A DNA stretch of 63,055 bases, the filler included, from Collodictyon triciliatum (lineage: Eukaryota), in NCBI GenBank assembly GCA_043381765.1. It is 19 parts of 19 records of this genome, joined end to end, with 100 filler letters (N's around TTAATTAATTAA, not from the genome) between each part and the next. Parts side by side here need not be neighbours in the genome. Positions count along the whole stretch, not along the records: positions 59,841 to 63,055 come from JBHJMP010007635.1; 18 more parts are not named here. One strand, 5' to 3'. How positions within the stretch are numbered: position 1 is the first letter of the stretch; every line of letters starts with the position of its first letter. A model generated the notes under the pieces. That model worked only from the letters and a program-made list of their open reading frames with translations, did not search any database and was not told where the DNA came from. A program made the position numbers and the translations under genes. Positions 3,227 to 63,055 of the stretch are shown piece by piece.

Positions 3227-3326
3227 NNNNNNNNNNNNNNNNNNNNNNNNNNNNNNNNNNNNNNNNNNNNTTAATTAATTAANNNNNNNNNNNNNNNNNN
3301 NNNNNNNNNNNNNNNNNNNNNNNNNN
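3227..3326. other. Artificial contig linker N44-TTAATTAATTAA-N44 (first of 18 in the window)
   Basis: An identical 12-mer with stops in all six frames sits centred in 100-nt N blocks about every 3.3 kb. Confidence 0.98.
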
Positions 3327-5752: not shown

Positions 5753-6652
5753 GTCACGCAACAAACATATGGGAAAAAGAATAAAAAAAAATTATGATAA
5801 AGATACCATCGAGTTGTGGACAGAGGCCATCTAAAATCTTATCTTCAACAGAATAGAAAGACAGAGCGAAGCTGTGCGATGCAATTTTGTGATGATGATG
5901 ATGAAAAGAAAGAAAAAACAAGGAGGTTATTTTGCCTAGATGCAACAGTTTCCTTGTCTCAACCAGATTTCTTATTTGCTCTTTATCTTGCTAACGCTCA
6001 AGGATACATCCCACCCACAGCCCATTTCGCATTGCACCAAGGAAGCTACGTGCGACTCTTCTGTTGATATTTCACTCATAGTTTGAGCGAGTTTACATCA
6101 ATATACACATATCTTTCCCCGTGTTATTAAGCCGAAGAAAAGAAAAAGTTAGATTATTATTGTTGTTGTTGTTGTTGTTGTTGCCGCAACCTCGTTTTGT
6201 TTGAAGGCGCTGGACTAAACGATAAAAAGTCGTTGTGTATAATTCCAGAATCGCATTTGCCCGAGAATCAACACTGGAAAGGAACTGTCTTTGATTCCGC
6301 TTCGTTGACTTGTCCTTTTTTTCTTTTTGGTGTTTGTATGTATATATATTGATTGCCTGACTTTTCGTCACGGAAGCAAACGAGTTATTTTTTTTTATTT
6401 TTTTAATCTTCGTTTTCATTGTATTCATATTACATAAATTTGTCTTTTTATCTCTTTTTAATCAATATGTGATGAGTTCCTCTCTGAACAACCACGCAGC
6501 TATTTCAACACCCCCTTTTTCCCCACGGCTTAATCTTTATTATCCTTTTTTTNNNNNNNNNNNNNNNNNNNNNNNNNNNNNNNNNNNNNNNNNNNNTTAA
6601 TTAATTAANNNNNNNNNNNNNNNNNNNNNNNNNNNNNNNNNNNNNNNNNNNN

Positions 6653-6764: not shown

Positions 6765-9576
6765 AAAAATGATCCCATCAGCATCGCCTGTATCAGATTT
6801 GAAATCGGGAAAGGACATTTGATGGCAGGACGACTACCCCTCTCTAGATATGTTTGTCACAAAATTGATTCATTTGCTCCAAAAATTACAAAATTTTCAA
6901 TATGGTTTATCTTCTCATTAGGTTTCTGTATTTTTTTTTATTTAAAAATTGCCATTCAGACATCGTCCGATTTGTATAATCTTCGAGCTAAATGATTATT
7001 GTTTTTTTTTTTTTAAAAAAAAAAAGCAGACCATAGTCGTTCGGAATCCACTAAACCCATTTGATTTTCAATAGCTTGTCTTCCAGGCCTTTAAAATACA
7101 TCAGCGAGCCGTCTCTGTCCCTAACCAAGAAAATAAAAGCTCATGGTCTCTCAATAACTTAGTAAGTAACAGAGAAAGTTGATAGAGCCTGTATTTGTAT
7201 TATGCACTAATTTAAAGAAGAATGAATAATACAATCATATTACATTCATTAATTACGGTTAAAAACATAGTTCATCTGTTGTTCAAGCAAAAGGTGCTAC
7301 TCAGAAGGTGCGCATGCCGTTGTGCCCCTCAGCACTCAAAATCTGTCCGATGATTTCGGTATTACCCTGTTGTATGTAGCACAGTTTGCCTATGAGGACT
7401 GCGTAAGTGATTCGTTGTACTAGTTGCATCAATTCTGGTTAAGTTGTAAATTCATTTCCACTATGCATTTAAATGAAACAATAAAAAAAAATTTTTTAAC
7501 TATAGTCGATAGAAGATTTTTTCATGCATCTGGGAACTTTATCTGGTGTCAAACTGACCGCTGAGGACAAGTAATTTACAACATTCGGCGAATGTCATAC
7601 AACTGGGACACGATTTAAATTTTCTATAGATATTAAAGCAGATTATGCTGATTTCTTTTACACATTCTATTATAGTGTCATGAAGCTTACCCTTCTCGCC
7701 ATTCATTCTGCCTGTATCAAAAAACAAGACTTCAGTCATCTGCTTGATGAACTACAGCATGAAGCATCATCCATGAAGACATCTTGGAGAATGTACGTGG
7801 AATAGCATTTTGCACGGTTTTCACTCTCTAATAATTTGATATTAGCCTACCGATAGTCTACTACTACTGCTCCAAGTGTTATCTCATATTGTGTAATTTC
7901 AATGCTGCAAGGTTAAAACAGTCATCCTATGTTTCGAAATAAATGTAGCCTCATTTTTTTTTTATCTCTGCACATAGTGTCAAACCATTCACTATCAAAA
8001 TTTGACACTTACAGAGTTTCTGTTGACAAAGCCCTTAAGTCTCTTCAAACTCAAGGAGATTATCGATTTTGCATGGAATCTCTACGTCTTCTGAGCTTCA
8101 TTGAAGCACTTCAGGTAAACTATATATGTAATGAATTGTAGCTTTTCAAAATACAGAAGTAATCAATTTCATAAATAAGACTTTTTCTTCACGAACTTTT
8201 TTAATTTTTAAATCCAACAACATTAATAATTCTTTGACTTCCACTCTCAAAACTATGACTAAACGATGTGCACTTTCGATTTAGGTCCGAAGAAAAGAAA
8301 TGAATTCAGCCGCCGATGTTTTATTGGCTTATGAGCGTGATATGACTGAGTTACATGGAAAACAAATGTACTGGATTGATAAAGCGTGGATTTTGATGGA
8401 AAATAATTTTGTAGCCGAAGCTTGGAAGCTATTGAAAGTTTGCAATTTATTTTCATCGCTCCACATTTAGTCCATTTTAAAATTGATTCATTTCAGACAT
8501 AATTGGCTTTTGGTGTTCTACTTTCACAATATTTACGATTCCAGCATGGGGAACTATATAATAATAATAATAATATTTCACAGGAAAATACACGAAAAGG
8601 AGTCTACTTACAGTACTTGCGCACTTCGGATATCTTGAGGCTACGAGGTATATGTTTAGAGGCGTCGATGCAAATGAAGCAAGACCAGGATGCCATGACC
8701 CATATCAAGGAAATCATGGCCTTATTTTCTTATAAGGACGTAAAAATGGCCAATTTTCCTTTATTGAAGGACGTTATTTCATGGAAGTTAGAGGGGCCTG
8801 CAGCAAAAGAACTACAACATCTTCTTTTCCCAAAGCTGAAATCTGTTCCTCTATCATACAGAATATTCAACTGTCTTGCTTCATTAGTTCAAGCGTCGAT
8901 GACATTTTTCAATCGTTGGGTGGCCGAGCACAAAAGTAAAGCGGATGAGACTTCATTTTGGCAAGAAACCACCGAAGTCGCACTCGAGCTCTTGGAGAAA
9001 TACTCACAGTACAATGCTTTTGCAAAACCTAGATACTTGCTCTTAAATGGAATATACAGACATCTTCGAGGAAAATCTCGCGCTGGGAAAGACCTATTCA
9101 TGGAATGCATAGCTGTGGCTGAGGATTTACGATTACCACGCGAACGAGCTTTGGCGCATCTGCAGATGGGGATTTTCGAATCTTCGATAGGGAAAGCTAG
9201 AATGGAAGTAGACAAGGCCACGTCACTCATGATACAGGCAGGTTTTGAGAATGCAAAGGACATCCTTCCTTATTTCATTTCAATCGAACAGTCATACCGA
9301 GAAAGCCTATTTTCTGCGAATGAAGCGATGTCAGAGAATTCTTTCTGTAAAGAGGCAAGCATAACAAACACACACAACACCGTCCTGGATTTAGAGGCTG
9401 TGGTAGAGCCAGCAAATCACCCTCCAACAAAACCAGTAACCCAGGACCATCTCACAAACCCGCCATCTCAGATTTCTAAAGAGAAACATAGAGCCAGCTC
9501 GAGCGCAAAAGTTCCACCAAAACCACCAAAACCAGCAACAAACGCTTGGAATCTGGATGAAACCTCCTTGAAATAA
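6765..9576 (+). CDS. 3' part of a multi-exon TPR-like helical protein resembling the C-terminus of STAND-type (ADCY10-like) cyclases
   Basis: Several GT-AG exons plus a long last exon with AKPRYLLLNGIY..LRGK...A...AEDLRLPRERALAHLQMG. No cyclase or P-loop domain is present in this contig. Confidence 0.45.
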
Positions 9577-41037: not shown

Positions 41038-42977
41038 ATGCAGCGCGCACAGACACTGGCGACTCTCTACCAGCACAAGAAGGAGAAGGAAAAGCTCGGA
41101 GGGGAACGTCGGCGGTATTCGATGGCGATCTTCTTCGTCGTCCAAGTCCTGATCCTCGTCTTCTTTTCGATCTTTACGAGGCACACAAACACAGCGGCTC
41201 CCGAACGTCATTATCAGGAATACATCGCCTTTTCCAGCGACTACATTCACTACAGCAACCTCATGATTATGACCATTATTGGATACACGCTGTCTTATGT
41301 CTCCAGTGTATGTATCTTCGCTCTGTTCCATTGCATTATGTCTATATTTCCCTATACTTGCAATTGCTATCGTTATATAATCCGTCCATCCATCATTCTT
41401 TTTTATGTATCAAAAGTGGATCAAAAGTGTACCATGCATTTATTGGCTATGTTTATTTTTTTCATGTGCTAGTATGAATGCAAAATCATTTATTTATTTA
41501 TTTATTTATGTACAAAGCAAACACACATATATCAGATTCATTACGCACGGCTTCTGACTTATAAAACCCAATCGATAGGCGACGGGGGGAACATCAAGTG
41601 GGATGATTCACGCAGCTGCCGCGTTCTTGACTCTGCAATGGGGGATTCTCGTTTTTGAGTTTTGGAATCGAGTCAGTTCGGGCGACTTTGACCACACTTA
41701 CCACTTGGACATCGAATCGCTGGCCGATGGATGCTATGCGACTATCACTGTTTTGATTAGCTTAGGGTGCGTCAATGGGCAGATTTCCATTGTCCAATCG
41801 CTGTGGAGCTCCCTCTTCCAAGTGGTTTTCTATGCATTTAACCACTTCCTTTTGAGTTTGCTGAATATCTCCAAGTGGGAACGTAATATCTACGTTCATT
41901 TATTCGGGGTTGTCTATGGTCTCGGAAGTTTGTACTAACTCTACTTTGAAAAGAACTATCCAGTTTATGAAAAAGAAATATAATATGAAATTATATTTAC
42001 GATACTAATTCTGCTCTCATGATGGATGTACAAAATATACATAACCTACTCTATCTGAAATACACAGTATCCTAATCATATATTCTTTCCAAAAACACAC
42101 ACACATATATAAATAGTGATGATTGGCTTACGTCCTTGCGTCCATGCGTCTGTTGTCCAGCAAAAGAAGGTTGGGAATGATTTCACGTCCAAGTTTGCTT
42201 TGCTTGGAACATTGATAACCGTGGTCACATTCCCATCCTTCAACGCTGCTTTCCAGCCAGTGGAGTTCCAATCGAGAGTGGTTTGTAACACATACTTGGC
42301 CTTGGCATCCGGAATCGTCTGCAGCTTTGCTACCTCTGTGATTCTGAGCCCAGAAGCACAATTCAAGTATGAAAAGATACGCTCGGGCATTCTCGCAAGC
42401 GGGGTTGCAATCTGCGGCTCCATCGCACCTCTCTGTGGACCAGCCGCCGCAGCCGGCGTTGGACTTGTCGCGTCGATGTCTGGCCTTCTTGTGGACCACT
42501 TTGCGAATGAAATGCTTGTGGATGTGTCAAACACACTTTCATCCCACTTCATTGGAGGCACGGTTGTTGGTGTGTTCGGCTCGGTGATTGCTGCAGCAAG
42601 TGTTGATGGCGACGGGAGTTTCTTCGGCCTCGAGTATGACGACTACTTTGACTCGAAATCAAACACACCCGGAAATTACGTGGCTGCCTTCTTTGTGACA
42701 GTCTTTGTTGCCTTTGTGCCGTCGTTTATAATCTCCTTGACCCTTGGGATGGGAGGCTGCTCGCCGAAGAAAAACTTTACCTGTTTTGAGGATATGGACG
42801 TTCTCTCAGACTATGACTGGATGATGCCAAAGACCCGCAGCTTCAAAATCAAGCAATACAAAAAGAAGGAAAGCTTGTTGAGCATCATCGCCGTGATTTT
42901 GGGGTTCAAGGACCCCTATGCAGACAGCGAGGTTGGGGATGCAGAGGCGCAGAGGGACCTCCATGTTACGTTGAGCG
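41038..42977 (+). CDS. Divergent Rhesus/Amt-family ammonium channel; the gene probably continues past the contig
   Basis: FLTLQWGILV, DIESLADGCYATITVLISLGCVNGQIS, YVHLFGVVYGL, LGTL...FPSFNAA, NTYLALASG, GILASGVAI, SHFIGG. Possible donor G|GTAAGT at 42978. Confidence 0.85.
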
Positions 42978-43550
42978 GTAAGTGCTAATTCGTGTCGCAC
43001 TGAGTGTTAAATTGTTTTTACTGTTTTTTACTGTTTTTACTGTTTTTTTACTGTTTTTTTACTGTTTTTTTTACTGTTTTTTTACTGTTTTTTTTACTGT
43101 TTTTTTACTGTTTTTTTACTGTTTTTTACTGTTTTTTTACTGTTTTTTTACTGTTTTTTTACTGTTNNNNNNNNNNNNNNNNNNNNNNNNNNNNNNNNNN
43201 NNNNNNNNNNTTAATTAATTAANNNNNNNNNNNNNNNNNNNNNNNNNNNNNNNNNNNNNNNNNNNNGAAAAGAGAGAGAAAAGAGAGAGAAAAGAGAGAG
43301 AAAAGAGAGAGAAAAGAGAGAGAAAAAGAGAGAGAAAAGAGAGAGAAAAGAGAGAGAAAAAGAGAGAGAAAAAGAGAGAGAAAAAGAGAGAGAAAAAGAG
43401 AGAGAAAAGAGAAAAAAGAGAGAAAAAAGAGAGAGAAAAGAGAAAAAAGAGAGAAAAGAGAAAAGAAAAGAGAAGAGAGAAAGAGAGAGAAAAGAGAGAG
43501 AAAAAAGCGAGAGAAAAAGAGAAATAGAGGGGGTGGGCAGGCGACGGCAA

Positions 43551-44040
43551 CCTGGACGGAGGAAGAGATGAGGGCAGAGGCAGAGGCAGAGGCGGGGGCG
43601 GGGGCAGGGGCGGGGGCGGAGGCGGCCAGGGGGTCAGCGGCGGGGTCTGTGAGGAGGGAGCCGGCGGCGGTGTGTGCGGCGGCGGTGGCGAGCCAGGTGT
43701 GGACGCGGCGGGTGTGGACGACGGCGGGGGTGGTGTGGTGGAGGAGGGCGTGGAGGGAGTCGAGCCAGAGGGCGGGGTCTGCGGCGGGGGCGACGTAGCG
43801 GTTGCTGCTGGTGGGGTGGACCAGGCACAGGCACTGCGGGTGCTGCCGGAAGCGCGTTGCCTCGCGGATCACGGCAATGAACTCCCGCAGCAGCCAGTGG
43901 CCCCGCGGCCCGCTCGCCTCGTCCGCAGAGAACACCACCCGGTCGAACGTCACCCGCGCGTACCGCCGCTTCCACCCGTGCAGCCGGCTCCCCCGCTTCT
44001 CCACCCACCCTTCCACAACAACCTCGCTGCTCTGCGCCAT
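43551..44040 (-). CDS. PH-domain protein, first exon (very GC-rich)
   Basis: VVEGWVEKRGSRLHGWKRRYARV...ALWLDSLHALL, followed by donor CAG|GTTGCC. Confidence 0.8.
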
Positions 44041-44158
44041 CCCCTTCTTCTCCGCTCCGCTCGCTTCTTCCCACGCGCCTAGGTTTTTTTTTTGTTTTTT
44101 GTTCTTTTCTTTTTCTTTTTGTTCTTTGTCTTTTGTTATTTTATTTAATTTTCTATTT

Positions 44159-44214
<56 letters not shown>

Positions 44215-45116
44215 TCTGCTGTGTTGACAGATGTCTTCCTCGTTGATCTATGAGTTGTGTACGCCTGTGTGGCTGATTATGTCTGGATTGATCTGATCTA
44301 AACAGCGAAATGCGTTTTGGTGGTGCGTCTGTGTTTGGGATGATGGAGCGGGGTTTATTCGGTTTGTTTTGTTGCTGTGGCGCTTTTTCTAAATCACACG
44401 TGCGCCTATGAGGCGGCTGATGGCTTTTGGAGGTCGGNNNNNNNNNNNNNNNNNNNNNNNNNNNNNNNNNNNNNNNNNNNNNNNNNNNNNNNNNNNNNNN
44501 NNNNNNNNNNNNNNNNNNNNNNNNNNNNNNNNNNNNNNNNNNNNNNNNNNNNNNNNNNNNNNNNNNNNNNNNNNNNNNNNNNNNNNNNNNNNNNNNNNNN
44601 NNNNNNNNNNNNNNNNNNNNNNNNNNNNNNNNNNNNNNNNNNNNNNNNNNNNNNNNNNNNNNNNNNNNNNNNNNNNNNNNNNNNNNNNNNNNNNNNNNNN
44701 NNNNNNNNNNNNNNNNNNNNNNNNNNNNNNNNNNNNNNNNNNNNNNNNNNNNNNNNNNNNNNNNNNNNNNNNNNNNNNNNNNNNNNNNNNNNNNNNNNNN
44801 NNNNNNNNNNNNNNNNNNNNNNNNNNNNNNNNNNNNNNNNNNNNNNNNNNNNNNNNNNNNNNNNNNNNNNNNNNNNNNNNNNNNNNNNNNNNNNNNNNNN
44901 NNNNNNNNNNNNNNNNNNNNNNNNNNNNNNGGGCGAGGCGGATTCTTTGTCTTTTCAAGTCGCTCTTGCGCTTTCTGTTGAGTGTCGTGTGTGGTTTGGT
45001 TGGTTTGAGAGTACATAAAGAAAAGAAAAGACATGGATTTTCAGATAAACTTGGGTGGATTCAAAGAATAACTGATTTAGAAAACTACCGGACATATATA
45101 CATGTATATCTATTAC

Positions 45117-57826: not shown

Positions 57827-60009
57827 AGGCGCAGGCAAATTTCACAAAATGTTAAGAGTTCGTAACCGAATCAAATGATATGTAATTAGTCAAATTACAT
57901 AATGTTTTTTTCTCGAATTGATTTTCGGCGAAGAGAACCAACAATTCTTCGGGAAAATCAAATTTCTTCGGTAATCTCAAATACTGCTAGTGCATTCCTG
58001 TCCGATATGCAGATATACCGCATTCATATTAGTATTCATATAATCTAAAAAATGGATTTACTTAAGTAAAGGTAAGCAACTTGCTTGCTTGCTCCGCTGT
58101 GTTTCTGCTCCCCAGTCCCGGCAATTTGTTACTAAACACCTTCACATCATCAAATCTGGGGAAAAACTCATAATTTTTTTATATTCAGGACTTTTATGCA
58201 CCGTTCAATAATACTCGTTTTATATTGTAATTCTGTGCATGATGGTGGAGTTGTTGGCTTCAATGATACTCGTTATTTCATCCTGGATAGAATTGAGCAA
58301 CAGAATCATTCAATACGGCTGTTACAATCTGATTATATTCACCACAATATTTGTCTTTTTCTTTTTTAATTGTGCAAAATGGTGGAAGTTTTGGTCTTGA
58401 GTCGCTAGCCTTCGTTCACATGAGTGCTACTTGTGGGCCGAATGACAGAAAGTAAAGTCAGTTTTTTAGCAACTGCACCCTGCGTGTTGGTCTGTAACAT
58501 GGCTCTTATGCCTCAGCGAGATATGTAACACAAGGTTTAATCAATTTATCGACCTCTTTACATATGTCTGTCTTCTCACGGGTTCTGAGTTATAAAGAAC
58601 GTAAAGGTGGTAAAATAATGTGGAGAAACAATTACTGTATGTCATTCGCAGGCATTCTTAAATGATTTACATATAACCATCTGCTGTTTTCTGATACCAA
58701 CATACGTCAAAATATAAAAAACAGAATAATCATTACGGAAAATAGAAAAATTATGATTTGGCAAAGTCATCACGACTATTCTATTTTCTACTACCAACTC
58801 TGAGCCCCATCCACAAGTCATTTTTTTTAATTTTTCTACCCCATAAATCACATCTTATTACATAATACTTCGATGCCTTTCCTTCACAAATTTTAAATTT
58901 GCATCCCTTAATAATGATAATGCAGTGAATAAAGACTGCACAAAGAAAAGCTAAAAAATAATAATAAAAAAACCAGGAATGAATTGATAATTTTTCAGTC
59001 CAAGACAGCGTGACTTTACAAATTGCAACATAGCTATACAGGTTCTGTATGCTCATGTTCATTGATTTTTTTTATTTCTTATCTGCAATATCTGCTTAAT
59101 GTTGTGTTGGTTATATTTGCTATTGTAAATTTAATGCGGACTATATGTCAGCAATTCATGATGAATTTTGTTCCTTATTTTGTTTTCATGGCTCTGTTTA
59201 TTTTGTTTGTTCTGAATGATGTCTGTCTGAATATTGAGAAGTTTCTGACTTGTAAACGCGTCACAACATCAGAAAATGAACTTTACATATGTCCACGATT
59301 TCCTATGATTGCGGGCCGCTATGCCACTTTGTACTGTATCATACACACAAAATGTGTATTGGGTCTTTATTCATTTAAGAATTGTAAATTAACACAACCT
59401 ATATGTCACTATCGCGGTTGCTACACAGCGGTACGCGGTGTAATCTCTGAGAAAATAGACAAATATAGATGCACACAAACTGGCCAATTTTATTAGAAGG
59501 AATTTCGTTGTTTTTTTTGTCGAGAGAAATACATCTTATACATACATTTATGTGAATGTAATTATCATCTGGTTTTTTTGTAGTAACATTTTATAAACAT
59601 GAAAATTAGTGGTCTTTACATAAATGCTGTATGGAATGCTTAAGGTCAATTATAAATATTCTGTACAAAGCCAATACACGCGCTCTAGATTTACCACGAT
59701 AAACAAGTTGACATAGCAATATAACCTTGTGTACCTGTAANNNNNNNNNNNNNNNNNNNNNNNNNNNNNNNNNNNNNNNNNNNNTTAATTAATTAANNNN
59801 NNNNNNNNNNNNNNNNNNNNNNNNNNNNNNNNNNNNNNNNGTTGGTTTTTGTTGGTTTTTGTTGGTTTTTGTTGGTTTTTGTTGGTTTTTGTTGGTTTTT
59901 GTTGGTTTTTGTTGGTTTTTGTTGGTTTTTGTTGGTTTTTGGGTCGGGAGATCAGGTATGGTACTATCTAATCAGGAAGCAATCATATCTATCATTTATT
60001 TATGTTATA

Positions 60010-60135
60010 CTAGAAGGGACATAACATCTTTCGATTGGTAAACCTGATGCGCTAGTATCCAAGGCCTCACCACTTTTTCACAAAGGTTGTGTAGTGGTGA
60101 AGGCTGCCAGGAAAGACCCGACAGCCTTTTTTTTA
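60010..60135 (-). ncRNA. Candidate Fanzor omegaRNA scaffold
   Basis: GC-richer structured segment directly 3' of RuvC-III. Stems AAGGCTG/CAGCCTT (60100-60106/60122-60128) and TCACCACT/AGTGGTGA (60067-60074/60093-60100) with inner CACAA/TTGTG, plus an ATC-GAAA-GAT tetraloop. Confidence 0.55.
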
Positions 60136-60999
60136 GAGAAAGGTGTTTGCAGTTTTTGAAGAATTAAAAGAACTTTCTTGAGTATATTATTAGCGCTTTT
60201 AAAGTCCCTTGTCAAGAATACAGTTTATTTGCTTTCTGGGCGATTGCATTATTTACATATGAGACATCTATACAACTTTTTTTGAATATCCTTTCAGTCT
60301 CATATATTCCAGTTCTTTTTCGCAGTTGCAGCACATCTTGGAGGTTTTTAATTCATCTACACTAACTGTTTCAAAACGTTTGGATAGTATTTTTCGTAAT
60401 CCTCTTCCGATTGTTGGTATAAAATGTTTCATCTGGGGATTTTCTGCTCCAATCTCCATACATCAGTACAATATCCTTGCCAAATGTCTTTTCGATTCGG
60501 TCCATAAACATTTGTTCTCTTCTTTTTGTATTAACATAATGGCTCCATATAATCTTTCGAAAAGTTACTTGTTCATAAAATCTGGATAGTTCTATCTGAT
60601 ATCTTGATTTCATAGATAAATATTTTCGAATTTTTTTCATAATCGACCGTGCACGAATTAAATTTACCCAGTTCTGTCTCTAAATCGATTAAAGATACTC
60701 TTGATGTCTCAAACTGCTGATTCTCTTCAAAAGTGATGCAACCAAAAGAAAACAGCACTTTATAAATCTGTTGCCATGCATATCCCTGAGGAATTTTACT
60801 TTTCTCGCGCAAGAGTATTTTGTGATTTTCAAGAGATTTGCTATCATGTCTTTTTTGGTGTGCCGTGTAGCGTAATTTCTTACCTGTCTCATCCACCATG
60901 TAAACCAAATTAAACTTGCCTGCGTCCACTCAAACTATTTTTTTTTTTTTTCGCTATTAAAGATAACTGCTCTTCGGAAAGTTCATCTATATAAACATA
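60067..60999 (-). pseudogene. Fanzor1 (eukaryotic TnpB-like RuvC nuclease) pseudogene, C-terminal half
   Basis: Stitched frames read YIDELSEEQL..KIV*VDAGK (RuvC-I D, 60926-60924)...ETELGKFNSCTVDYEK...FYEQVTFRK...IEKTFGKDIVLMYGDWS...QMKHFIPTIGRGLRKILSKRFETVSVDELKTSKMCCNC (rearranged RuvC-II E, 60354-60352; Zn finger)...CK*C...FLTRDFKSANNI (RuvC-III D, 60206-60204). Four frameshifts and three stops. Confidence 0.9.
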
Positions 61000-61224: not shown

Positions 61225-63055
61225 TTTCCACCTTTCTTCAAGTGTCTCATCTTTCTCCTCATTTTGCAGTCGCTTTTCTTATTATTGTTTTTTACCCAAA
61301 TATCTGGAAATTTGATCGTCGCTCATGCTGACTGGACGCGATAAAAGACCTTTTTGATTATCTTCTTGCCCCGTCAAATCGAACTATATTGTTTTTTATT
61401 TTATTAATATGCCATCCGAGACTCAAGCCTCTTAAAACATCATTTACTATCATAAAAAGCCATCAATATTATGTCTCAATCATTTCAAATAGCATAAAAA
61501 CGTATTCCCTGTTCTTATGTAATTCTTTTAAACCGCTTCATTGAGAGGAACGTTTCACTCACTGGATTCATCATTTTATATATAACCTTAATACCTAATA
61601 ATAAAATATATATGTTGTATTGTTCTATGAGTTGCAATATAATATGTTTTGAGATCTCGCTATGATAGCAGGCTAGGAGTGTTGGAGTCGTCCGTGCCAC
61701 AGAGTTTCCCTCATTGCGCGTTGCAGGCTTATGCTCCGTGTGCAAAAGAATATCATTTCGCTTCTACCTTGCTCCATCAAAGGAGCCCGCTCCGTCTTAT
61801 TAGTAGGTTGTTGTACTCACGGGTCGGTGGCATCTGGCGTCTTGATCGTCAGTCTGTCTCGGTGCATAACTGTGTTGTAAGGGATGTAGTCAAGTGACCT
61901 TTTCGCTCTCTGGATTAGATGCGTCGGCCTCTTCGGTTTGCGTTCGGTCAGTAGGCATCCTACGGGGCAAGGCTGTGGCGCCGGTCTCCTGATTGGTGGT
62001 CTCGTCCTTATCAGGATCGCTCCTTCCAATCGCTTACTTCTTTGCTTTTTGTTCTTTTCGGCTTCAGAATGCGGTGGGTTAGAAGGAAAGAACACCAGTT
62101 AGATATTACTTTCAGGGGAATGTGTTCTGTGTCTCTCTGTGTGCTTGTTACATAAAGAGACATTTTTCTCAATTTATATAGTTTTTTATTGCTTGTTTCA
62201 ATTGCGTATCTCTCAGTGTCATAAATATGAGTTTACATATATTTTACAGAATTGGAATTTGGGCGTTGGAACAAACGAACGAGCAAATGCACCATTTATG
62301 GAATATATTTCGAATTTTTAATATTCTGATAAAACCACTTTGAACTGGATAACTTATTCAATTTTAGACCACAAAATAAAACAATTATCATATATACGTA
62401 TCGACAAAGTAAAAAGCGCAGGATTTGAGGGGTGTGCGTCATATGGCATCTCAACTCTTTACAACGCGCATGCCAACGTTCGGCAGCAAAACTTTTTCTC
62501 TTTTCCTGCTGCATTCTCGCAGATGCGACACGAGCGAAGAAGCGACACAACGAGGAAGAACAGAAACGAGACTCTTGGGGGCACTCAGTGTGCCTGTCAG
62601 ACTTCTTGCACTGGCGCTTCCCATACCCTGTTTGCTCGGCCCGACTCAAAGAGAGAAGTGTGCCGACCCGCTCATAGGACACGGAAGCCCTCGACAGGCG
62701 GTGTGACTGGTTCTCTTGGACTGAGATCAGGAGGAAACAGGATGCTTGACGCCGAGAGACAAAGGCTCTGCAACTCATGCGAGTCAGCGGATTAGATGCT
62801 GGTTTATTTTATCAGTCGTCCGCCTTGGGGGGTGCAGGCGAAAAGACGCTTCGGCTGGCCTTCTTCATGTTCATGAAGTTGCTCGCAGCCCGGTCGTCGC
62901 GGGCCATTTGTCTTTGGACGTTGAGAGCGGCCTGTGGCTGGGGTGCGCCCTGTATGCAGCGCAGGGATGTGCGTTTTTTTTTTTTTTTTGCAATTGGTAA
63001 ATAAACGGGCAGTTGCCAGGAAGACTACGATACTGCAAAGGAAAAAAAAAAGAAA

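Follow-up and report, generated by a model that had tools for sequence, protein, structure and literature searches.

The window analysed here, a stretch of 63,055 nucleotides from the Collodictyon triciliatum assembly GCA_043381765.1, very probably carries, at positions 60015-60999 of the minus strand, a transposon-borne Fanzor1 gene copy that is dead and has lost its 5' part, on a short contig from a eukaryote that uses the standard genetic code. What is left of this RNA-guided nuclease gene is its rear 47%, covering the RuvC and zinc-finger region, together with a structured 3' tail. The copy can give rise to no active nuclease because it combines four frameshifts, three in-frame stop codons and a Pro-to-Ala change in the DPG motif with the loss of the WED/REC half of the protein. 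Guide RNA and heteroduplex would be expected to sit in this half of a Fanzor1 enzyme.

Organization of the Fanzor1 relic

The window (positions 1-63055) consists of 19 short contigs, most of them about 3.2 kb long, joined by linkers of the form N44-TTAATTAATTAA-N44 (3227-3326, 6553-6652 and so on to 59741-59840). Because it is made of joined contigs, genes on the two sides of a linker are not genomic neighbours. The relic lies in the last contig (59841-63055), where its coding part runs along the minus strand in 60081-60999 through five reading-frame segments that add up to about 309 codons (Table 1). A second copy of the relic, or anything similar to it, was not found elsewhere in the window.

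A first-pass annotation of the same DNA had described three minus-strand open reading frames (ORFs), in three different frames, joined by frameshifts into a single protein. The three are present; measured from stop to stop they span 60573-60929 (ORF1), 60371-60679 (ORF2) and 60268-60462 (ORF3), the ends 60640 and 60459 originally given for the last two being those of the first ATG codons. That they belong to one protein is borne out as well. Full-length relatives are collinear with the window through frames -3, -1, -2 and -3, which argues that the joins between segments are real and not due to chance. A read-through translation with an X at each of the seven breaks is identical to residues 341-643 of the database protein P0039 at 184 of 308 positions (60%; E 3e-121). 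The frameshifts thus stood, but the count of three ORFs understated the damage, which comprises five segments, four frameshifts, three stops and about 340 missing codons.

Homology starts in segment 0, to which residues 341-359 of P0039 can be aligned; two shorter database relatives, P0005 and P0006, likewise align from 60999 downward. Segment 2 aligns with residues 843-916 of SpuFz1 and 1094-1142 of PpFz1, two Fanzor1 proteins of solved structure (see below). Segment 4 is followed by a TGA codon (60078-60080) near the position at which P0039 ends. All of the motifs and RuvC acidic residues quoted in the first-pass annotation are there, and in order they read VDAGK, GDWS, PTIGRGLRK, VDELKTSKMCCNC with the shifted Glu, CLIC (the second CxxC) and TRDFKSANNI. 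In an alignment of 19 sequences, the Asp, the Glu, the four Cys and the RD of the relic fall in conserved columns.

Table 1. Coordinates of the segments and lesions of the relic, of its 3' end, and of the elements that carry its viral relatives (viral positions refer to the viral loci, all others to the window).
Feature	Position	Strand	Description
Segment 0	60940-60999	minus	20 codons directly upstream of RuvC-I, YVYIDELSEEQLSLIA...; homology starts here
Frameshift 0	60939	minus	one extra base in T14 run 60938-60951 (plus-strand letters)
Segment 1	60633-60938	minus	RuvC-I region; catalytic Asp codon 60924-60926; insert of ~35 residues
Frameshift 1	60632	minus	one extra base, T7 run 60631-60637; DYEK / IRKY
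Segment 2	60437-60631	minus	helical stretch with YGDWS at its end; Gly in the old RuvC-II glutamate position
Frameshift 2	60436	minus	one extra base, G4 run 60435-60438; GDWSRKS / QMKHF
Segment 3	60277-60435	minus	PTIGRGLRK, shifted catalytic Glu codon 60352-60354 (VDELKTS), first CxxC of zinc finger
Frameshift 3	60276	minus	one extra base in or beside T7 run 60277-60283; GYSKK / LYRCLIC
Segment 4	60081-60275	minus	second CxxC, RuvC-III Asp codon 60204-60206 (TRDFKSANNI), C-terminal tail
3' end of repeat unit	60015-60130	minus	hairpins and family end
Viral elements	L001 2636-5953; L003 2667-5950; L009, L012 2422-5868		inverted ends GGCGTTTTAAATG...AAGGGTGTAAAA

Identity as Fanzor1

Assignment to Fanzor1 follows from matches to solved structures and from the N-terminal half of the relatives. 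Among the chains of the PDB, ORF3 matched PpFz1 of Parasitella parasitica (9cf0, residues 1136-1183, E 2.2e-4), while ORF2 matched the residues just before these in the same chain (1094-1142, E 0.058) as well as SpuFz1 (8gkh, E 0.083). ORF1 alone gave no nuclease match in the PDB. Far stronger matches were obtained with two of the relatives: P0011 found SpuFz1 (residues 14-607, E 9e-37), PpFz1 (7e-34) and GtFz1 (9cer, 7e-16), and P0039 found GtFz1 (2e-28), PpFz1 (3e-24) and SpuFz1 (4e-23), its N-terminal half included. Fanzor1 proteins were the only nuclease chains among the PDB matches at E<=1, and no Fanzor2, TnpB or Cas12 chain of the PDB matched P0011 or P0039 at that threshold.

The motifs agree with this assignment. 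The sequence VDELKTSKMCCNC conforms to E-x6-CxxC, and YGDWS aligns with the GDWS or GNWS of SpuFz1 and PpFz1. A C4 zinc finger is followed by the RuvC-III motif RD(x5)N (CCNC ... CLIC ... TRDFKSANN), with a spacing that fits both of the published patterns used, which were taken from sections of 10.1101/2023.08.09.552727 and PMC3627910. The relic matches the motif of Bao and Jurka and, except for the P of DPG, the regular expression of Yoon et al. (the strict form fails, D.G passes). DPG, the family's form of the RuvC-I motif, occurs in 17 of the 19 aligned rows; the relic has DAG instead and P0004 lacks the region. DAG is also found in P0003 and P0005. A part of PMC10530073 describes Gly or Pro in place of the canonical RuvC-II Glu.

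The first-pass annotation had called the relic a Fanzor1, as the structural matches of ORF2, ORF3, P0011 and P0039 confirm; it had, however, taken the Glu just before the zinc finger as the mark of this class. That argument does not hold, since passages of 10.1101/2023.08.09.552727 and PMC10530073 attribute a Glu six residues before the zinc finger to Fanzor1, Fanzor2 and some TnpBs alike, so that the shifted Glu is necessary for a Fanzor1 but not sufficient. Measured against the refuting conditions that it had named, the call is supported: Fanzor structures are matched by way of the intact relatives, the D-E-D residues align, and the tree places the family among viral Fanzor1s (see below).

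A phmmer search with ORF1 alone returned 33 proteins at E<=1e-3 among 1.84 billion; longer homologous proteins were also sought with ORF2, and none was found. A Fanzor2 or an IS607-type TnpB was considered as an alternative identity and rejected: neither the relic nor its relatives show a serine-recombinase TnpA or a best similarity of the IS607 type, and the gene next to the viral Fanzor1 genes encodes a DDE_3 protein.

A many-copy repeat family

The relic is one copy of a diverged repeat family with many members. When contigs of public sequencing runs were aligned on 1068 bases of the relic, 191 were recovered from one small organism-labelled run (X2) and 171 from another (X5), with 32 more from a subsurface metagenome and 2 from a freshwater metagenome. 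Distributed over identity bins of 99% and above, 95-99%, 90-95% and below 90%, the numbers were 26, 51, 74 and 40 in X2 and 20, 41, 60 and 50 in X5. Both runs contain dozens of distinct variants at each position of the relic. Of the words sampled from the relic, no single public run contained more than 18%, and none of the runs listed as containing them was identified as RNA, although X2 and X5 might be. The idea that the organism carries a Fanzor family of its own is supported by these contigs, at 85-99+% identity, and by database fragments at 50-90%.

Those fragments, P0001-P0008, are 68-291 residues long. P0001 and P0004-P0008 look, from their sequences, like frame fragments of decayed family copies; P0001, for example, begins in a wrong frame in the GDWS region. 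More generally, P0001, P0007 and P0008 start in a wrong frame of the Fanzor gene and then change to the right one; they look like the result of gene prediction on pseudogenes with frameshifts. At least one intact family member exists in public data, namely P0039, a database protein of 648 residues with its N-terminal half in place. P0006 also has an N-terminal half. A scan of metagenomes with P0004 yielded three loci, of only 39% identity and outside the relic family. One further relative, P0013 (378 residues), carries the full DPG...E...C4...RD pattern, yet one source names it '6-pyruvoyl-tetrahydropterin synthase', which looks like a mis-annotation.

Decay of the copy

The state of other family members at the lesions of the relic was read from the run contigs, the figures for omitted bases being among the indels listed for them. 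At frameshift 0, other copies vary in the length of the T14 run (-3, -4). At frameshift 1 a base is omitted at 60631 or 60632 with a depth of 36.4 out of 52.2 in X2, 70.3 out of 127.8 in X5 and 4.47 out of 4.47 in a third run, X3; at frameshift 2 omission at 60434 or 60437 accounts for about half of the depth or more in both X2 and X5; and at frameshift 3 omission at 60277 accounts for 65.9 of 206 (X2) and 56.4 of 203.6 (X5). At two of the four frameshifts the extra base is missing from most family copies.

The in-frame stops are a TGA at 60930-60932 and two TAA codons at 60249-60251 and 60225-60227. In X2, 60932 is changed from A to C at a depth of 189.1 out of 194.5, which turns TGA into GGA, a codon for the Gly found in the relatives. 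Likewise, 60251 A>C (TAA to GAA) reaches 262.7 out of 268.3 and 60227 A>G (TAA to CAA) 275.3 out of 296; the figures at the three sites are similar in X5 and X3. In P0001 the two TAA codons correspond to Glu and Gln. The three stops of the relic are minority states in its family, most copies having sense codons there. They are true stops, as a stop-free ORF of 1022 codons lies on another contig of the window.

The front part of the gene is absent. In tblastn searches neither residues 1-340 of P0039 nor the N-terminal halves of P0009, P0011 and the viral proteins L001 and L009 found a match in the window. Past 60997-60999 the contigs of other copies diverge from the relic (three in X2, one in X3, four in X5).

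The 3' end and a possible guide RNA

By analogy with its family, the intact ancestor of the relic would have been a protein of about 648 residues that bound a guide RNA. Transcription of the 3' end of the same element would have supplied this RNA, the sequence for its scaffold presumably spanning the tail of the ORF as well as the right transposon end. Such a nuclease would have cut double-stranded DNA matching the guide, at a RuvC site formed by the Asp of RuvC-I, the shifted Glu (six residues before the C4 zinc finger) and the Asp of RuvC-III.

Several properties of the 3' end of the relic are consistent with this scheme. Two stable hairpins at ~60063-60128 overlap the last codons and the stop, and about 60 nt then follow to the end of the family. 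Similarity between copies ends between 60015 and 60050, the contig depth below 60015 being 0 or about 2. The 288 nt of 59943-60230 (minus strand) fold with -66.7 kcal/mol (z -3.11), and none of 200 shuffled sequences was as stable. From the RuvC-III Asp to the family end the relic measures ~185-190 nt, compared with 204-212 nt in the viral loci L001, L009 and L010 (measured by hand). These features suggest that 60015-60130 may be the remnant of an omegaRNA scaffold together with the right transposon end. A search of Rfam gave nothing at the gathering score and one chance-level match (E 0.098).

The viral relatives carry comparable structures. In L001-L003, hairpins in the last Fanzor1 codons show, by eye, compensatory substitutions such as CCGTG/CACGG, CTGTG/CACAG and TAGTG/CACTA, and in the last ~150 nt of most of the loci L001-L015 a variable hairpin comes after a conserved TTG(A/T)TTTTAC box (also by eye). 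Box and hairpins probably constitute the guide-RNA scaffold of the viral family. Profiles of the viral 3' ends (45, 70, 110 and 190 nt) were run with nhmmer and had no match at 60015-60060; their sole match inside the relic region, at 60121-60181, was at chance level (E 30). A likeness between the relic's end and the viral ends that an alignment had suggested to the eye is discounted on these grounds.

A dead protein need not mean a silent locus. The relic might still act as a 'ghost' source of guide RNA that loads the Fanzor1 protein of intact copies, a reading that is compatible with a dead gene copy. Guide-supplying ghost loci are mentioned in a passage by Saito et al. (PMC10432273), the relic has kept its right end and the unusual fold stability of its 3' 288 nt, its hairpins are placed as in the viral relatives, and an intact family member exists in P0039. 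The viral-end profiles find nothing at its 3' end, and we consider this role improbable. A wider proposal, in which the source organism, which seems to be a microbial eukaryote from fresh water, harbours a large, recently active and virus-exchanged Fanzor1 family whose intact P0039-like members of ~648 residues are supplied with guides in trans by dead copies, is put forward tentatively, as a scenario with a real but minor chance of being right. If true, a single nuclease would be served in nature by many 'ghost' guides, and a new Fanzor1 ortholog would become available for tests in genome editing.

Relatives on giant-virus contigs

A scan of IMG/VR with alignment A1 confirmed 16 of 17 candidate loci, several of them on contigs named as giant-virus bins, of up to 254 kb. 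With ORF2 alone, the scan of viral contigs gave 27 pattern matches and no confirmed locus. The confirmed loci contain intact Fanzor1 ORFs of 595-651 residues. As judged from sequence, the nearest complete relatives found here outside the relic's own family are those on giant-virus contigs, at a nucleotide identity of 58-64%.

The viral genes lie in elements of 3.3-3.4 kb in which a 28-nt terminal motif recurs in inverted orientation upstream (L001, L003, L009 and L012). The ends of the elements are fixed by L009 and L012, which hold the same element in flanks that differ on both sides. A gene for a transposase of 339-346 residues, with DDE_3 and helix-turn-helix domains, separates the Fanzor1 gene from the left end; the orientation of this transposase gene in L001 is opposite to that in L009. 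In L014 three copies of the terminal motif are found, at 1825-1852, 5987-6014 and 6818-6845, one forward and two inverted. This arrangement points either to another element beside the Fanzor1 element, short and non-autonomous, or to ends that are nested.

In a maximum-likelihood tree of the RuvC half, the relic forms a clade with P0039 and P0004 (support 100/99). This clade is sister to the L001-L003 group (87/83), inside a radiation of viral and metagenome sequences. A tree in which the others were forced together was rejected by the approximately unbiased (AU) test (p 0.013), with the tested group chosen once the tree was known. P0027, on a long branch, serves as an arbitrary root, and cellular Fanzor1s are not among the taxa. 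The resemblance to giant-virus Fanzor1s noted in the first-pass annotation is therefore upheld by the IMG/VR relatives and by the nesting, as a resemblance and not as a direction of transfer. The family presumably passed into or out of its present lineage by virus-host exchange of the transposon, since it nests among the Fanzor1s of giant-virus elements of the Tc1/mariner type.

The same data could be taken to mean that the contig itself is giant-virus DNA, present as a contaminant or as an endogenous viral element, and that the relic is a viral Fanzor1 gene. The closest complete relatives outside its family do lie on giant-virus contigs, with the relic clade nested among them, but the dozens of variants per position in the two organism-labelled runs, with identities of 85-99+%, are as one would expect of a repeat family in a cellular genome and not of a single viral genome. 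Moreover, the insert of ~35 residues that the relic family has after RuvC-I occurs in none of ten viral proteins compared, the 58-64% identity to the viral genes is low, and the contig (though it spans only 3.2 kb) carries no viral hallmark gene. A viral origin of the contig is accordingly quite unlikely.

Strength of the interpretation

That the gene is alive is very improbable: its frame changes would have to be homopolymer sequencing errors (each is a single extra base in a T14, T7, G4 or T7 run, and copies without the extra base exist) or short introns, and its stops sense codons or errors, whereas the motifs are contiguous to within a residue across the junctions when compared with P0004, P0007, P0001 and P0039 and leave no room for an intron, three substitutions have turned Gly, Glu and Gln codons of the family into stops, long stop-free ORFs in the window indicate the standard code, residues 1-340 are absent, and much of the depth in independent runs shares the run lengths of the relic. 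Both special explanations were tried and rejected. Introns at the frame changes conflict with the contiguity of the motifs across every junction (P0007 reads through frameshift 1, P0004 through frameshift 2 and P0001 through frameshift 3). An alternative genetic code, in which TAA for Gln would open the tail, conflicts with stop-free ORFs of up to 1022 residues elsewhere and with the GAA and CAA codons of the relatives.

Several observations nonetheless weigh against a dead, transposon-borne cellular Fanzor1 copy. Given that all four frameshifts sit in homopolymers, some could be assembly artefacts. At least part of them are probably real, because the remaining depth in independent runs has the run lengths of the relic, and in any case the copy would stay dead through its nonsense codons and its truncation. 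The truncation at ~61000, on a contig of 3.2 kb, could in turn be an assembly join in a repeat and not a biological breakpoint. On its own, Pfam provided, for the four pieces of the relic searched, sub-threshold matches only: PF07282 with ORF3 (E 0.048), and Telomerase_RBD and TBPIP at chance level. Support for nesting among the viral sequences is moderate (87/83, 85/89), with an arbitrary root and a post-hoc group in the AU test. The element type of the host family is read by analogy from its viral relatives; the relic contig itself yielded neither an inverted end nor a target duplication nor a transposase, and no inverted repeat pairs with the 3' end. Finally, the viral right-end profile misses the 3' end of the relic, so that the guide-RNA reading draws on fold stability and position.

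Relation to known systems

With the solved Fanzor1s SpuFz1 (8gkh), PpFz1 (9cf0) and GtFz1 (9cer) the relic shares the order Asp motif, G(D/N)WS, Glu six residues before a C4 finger, and RD..N; the likeness of P0011 and P0039 to these proteins extends over nearly the full length, N-terminal half included. It differs from them in having only the rear 47%, with four frameshifts, three stops and DAG, and its family differs in the ~35-residue insert after RuvC-I. Fanzor2 and IS607-type TnpB ('pro-Fanzor') resemble the relic family in the shifted RuvC-II Glu beside the zinc finger and in the DPG motif, as described in part of 10.1101/2023.08.09.552727, but none of their PDB chains matches P0011 or P0039 at E<=1, and the N-terminal half of the family matches Fanzor1.

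The giant-virus relatives resemble the mariner-type Fanzor1 transposons described in a section of Bao and Jurka (2013, PMC3627910), such as PGv-1 of Phaeocystis globosa virus, to which they are likened by description. Unlike these viral elements, the relic is one of many copies in its family, sits on a short contig that is part of a cellular assembly, and has neither a transposase nor an inverted end beside it; its 3' end has no sequence homology to the ends of the viral relatives.

Much of this has precedent. Fanzor1 genes in protists and giant viruses are reported in a portion of PMC10432273, the mariner association of Fanzor1 and its spread by viruses were noted in 2013 in a passage of PMC3627910, and the rearranged active site, along with genomes holding up to 122 copies, appears in parts of PMC10530073. 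The relic is a real, ordinary pseudogene of a nuclease class that has already been described, structurally solved and shown to be programmable, and the supplements of the surveys (Saito 2023, Jiang 2023, Yoon 2023) may already list the organism or P0039. The expectation that intact copies would amount to a new programmable nuclease has accordingly to be split: an intact member exists, in P0039, but it would be another ortholog of a known class and not a novelty.

What the relic does mark is a many-copy cellular Fanzor1 family inside a giant-virus radiation of mariner-type elements. It is a further example for the proposal, already in print, that Fanzor elements are carried from one eukaryote to another by large viruses, and it leads to P0039 as a candidate for testing as another Fanzor1 ortholog. 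It also calls for caution in annotation, in that 'hypothetical proteins' in the databases may be frame fragments of a decayed family.

Surroundings of the relic and other contigs

The relic contig begins with 10.1 perfect tandem copies of GTTGGTTTTT (59841-59941). The array lies ~75-100 nt past the 3' end of the Fanzor repeat unit and could be a minisatellite at an assembly break or a telomere-like repeat. Upstream of the relic, 61650-62900 is richer in GC and has ORFs on both strands (62296-62808 minus, 62322-62795 plus). Nothing in Pfam matched this segment, nor did it resemble Fanzor or transposase proteins; the sequence is unrelated to the relic, to which it is joined at ~61000.

The remaining contigs of the window contain eukaryotic genes in the standard code, among them genes for a leucine-rich-repeat protein of 1022 residues, a kinase, a polycystin-type channel and NHL repeats. 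Apart from the linkers, the window includes a run of 493 N at 44438-44930. The region 42000-45100 is rich in GC and has many long overlapping ORFs on both strands, with Pfam matches to a fragment of an ammonium transporter and to a PH domain.

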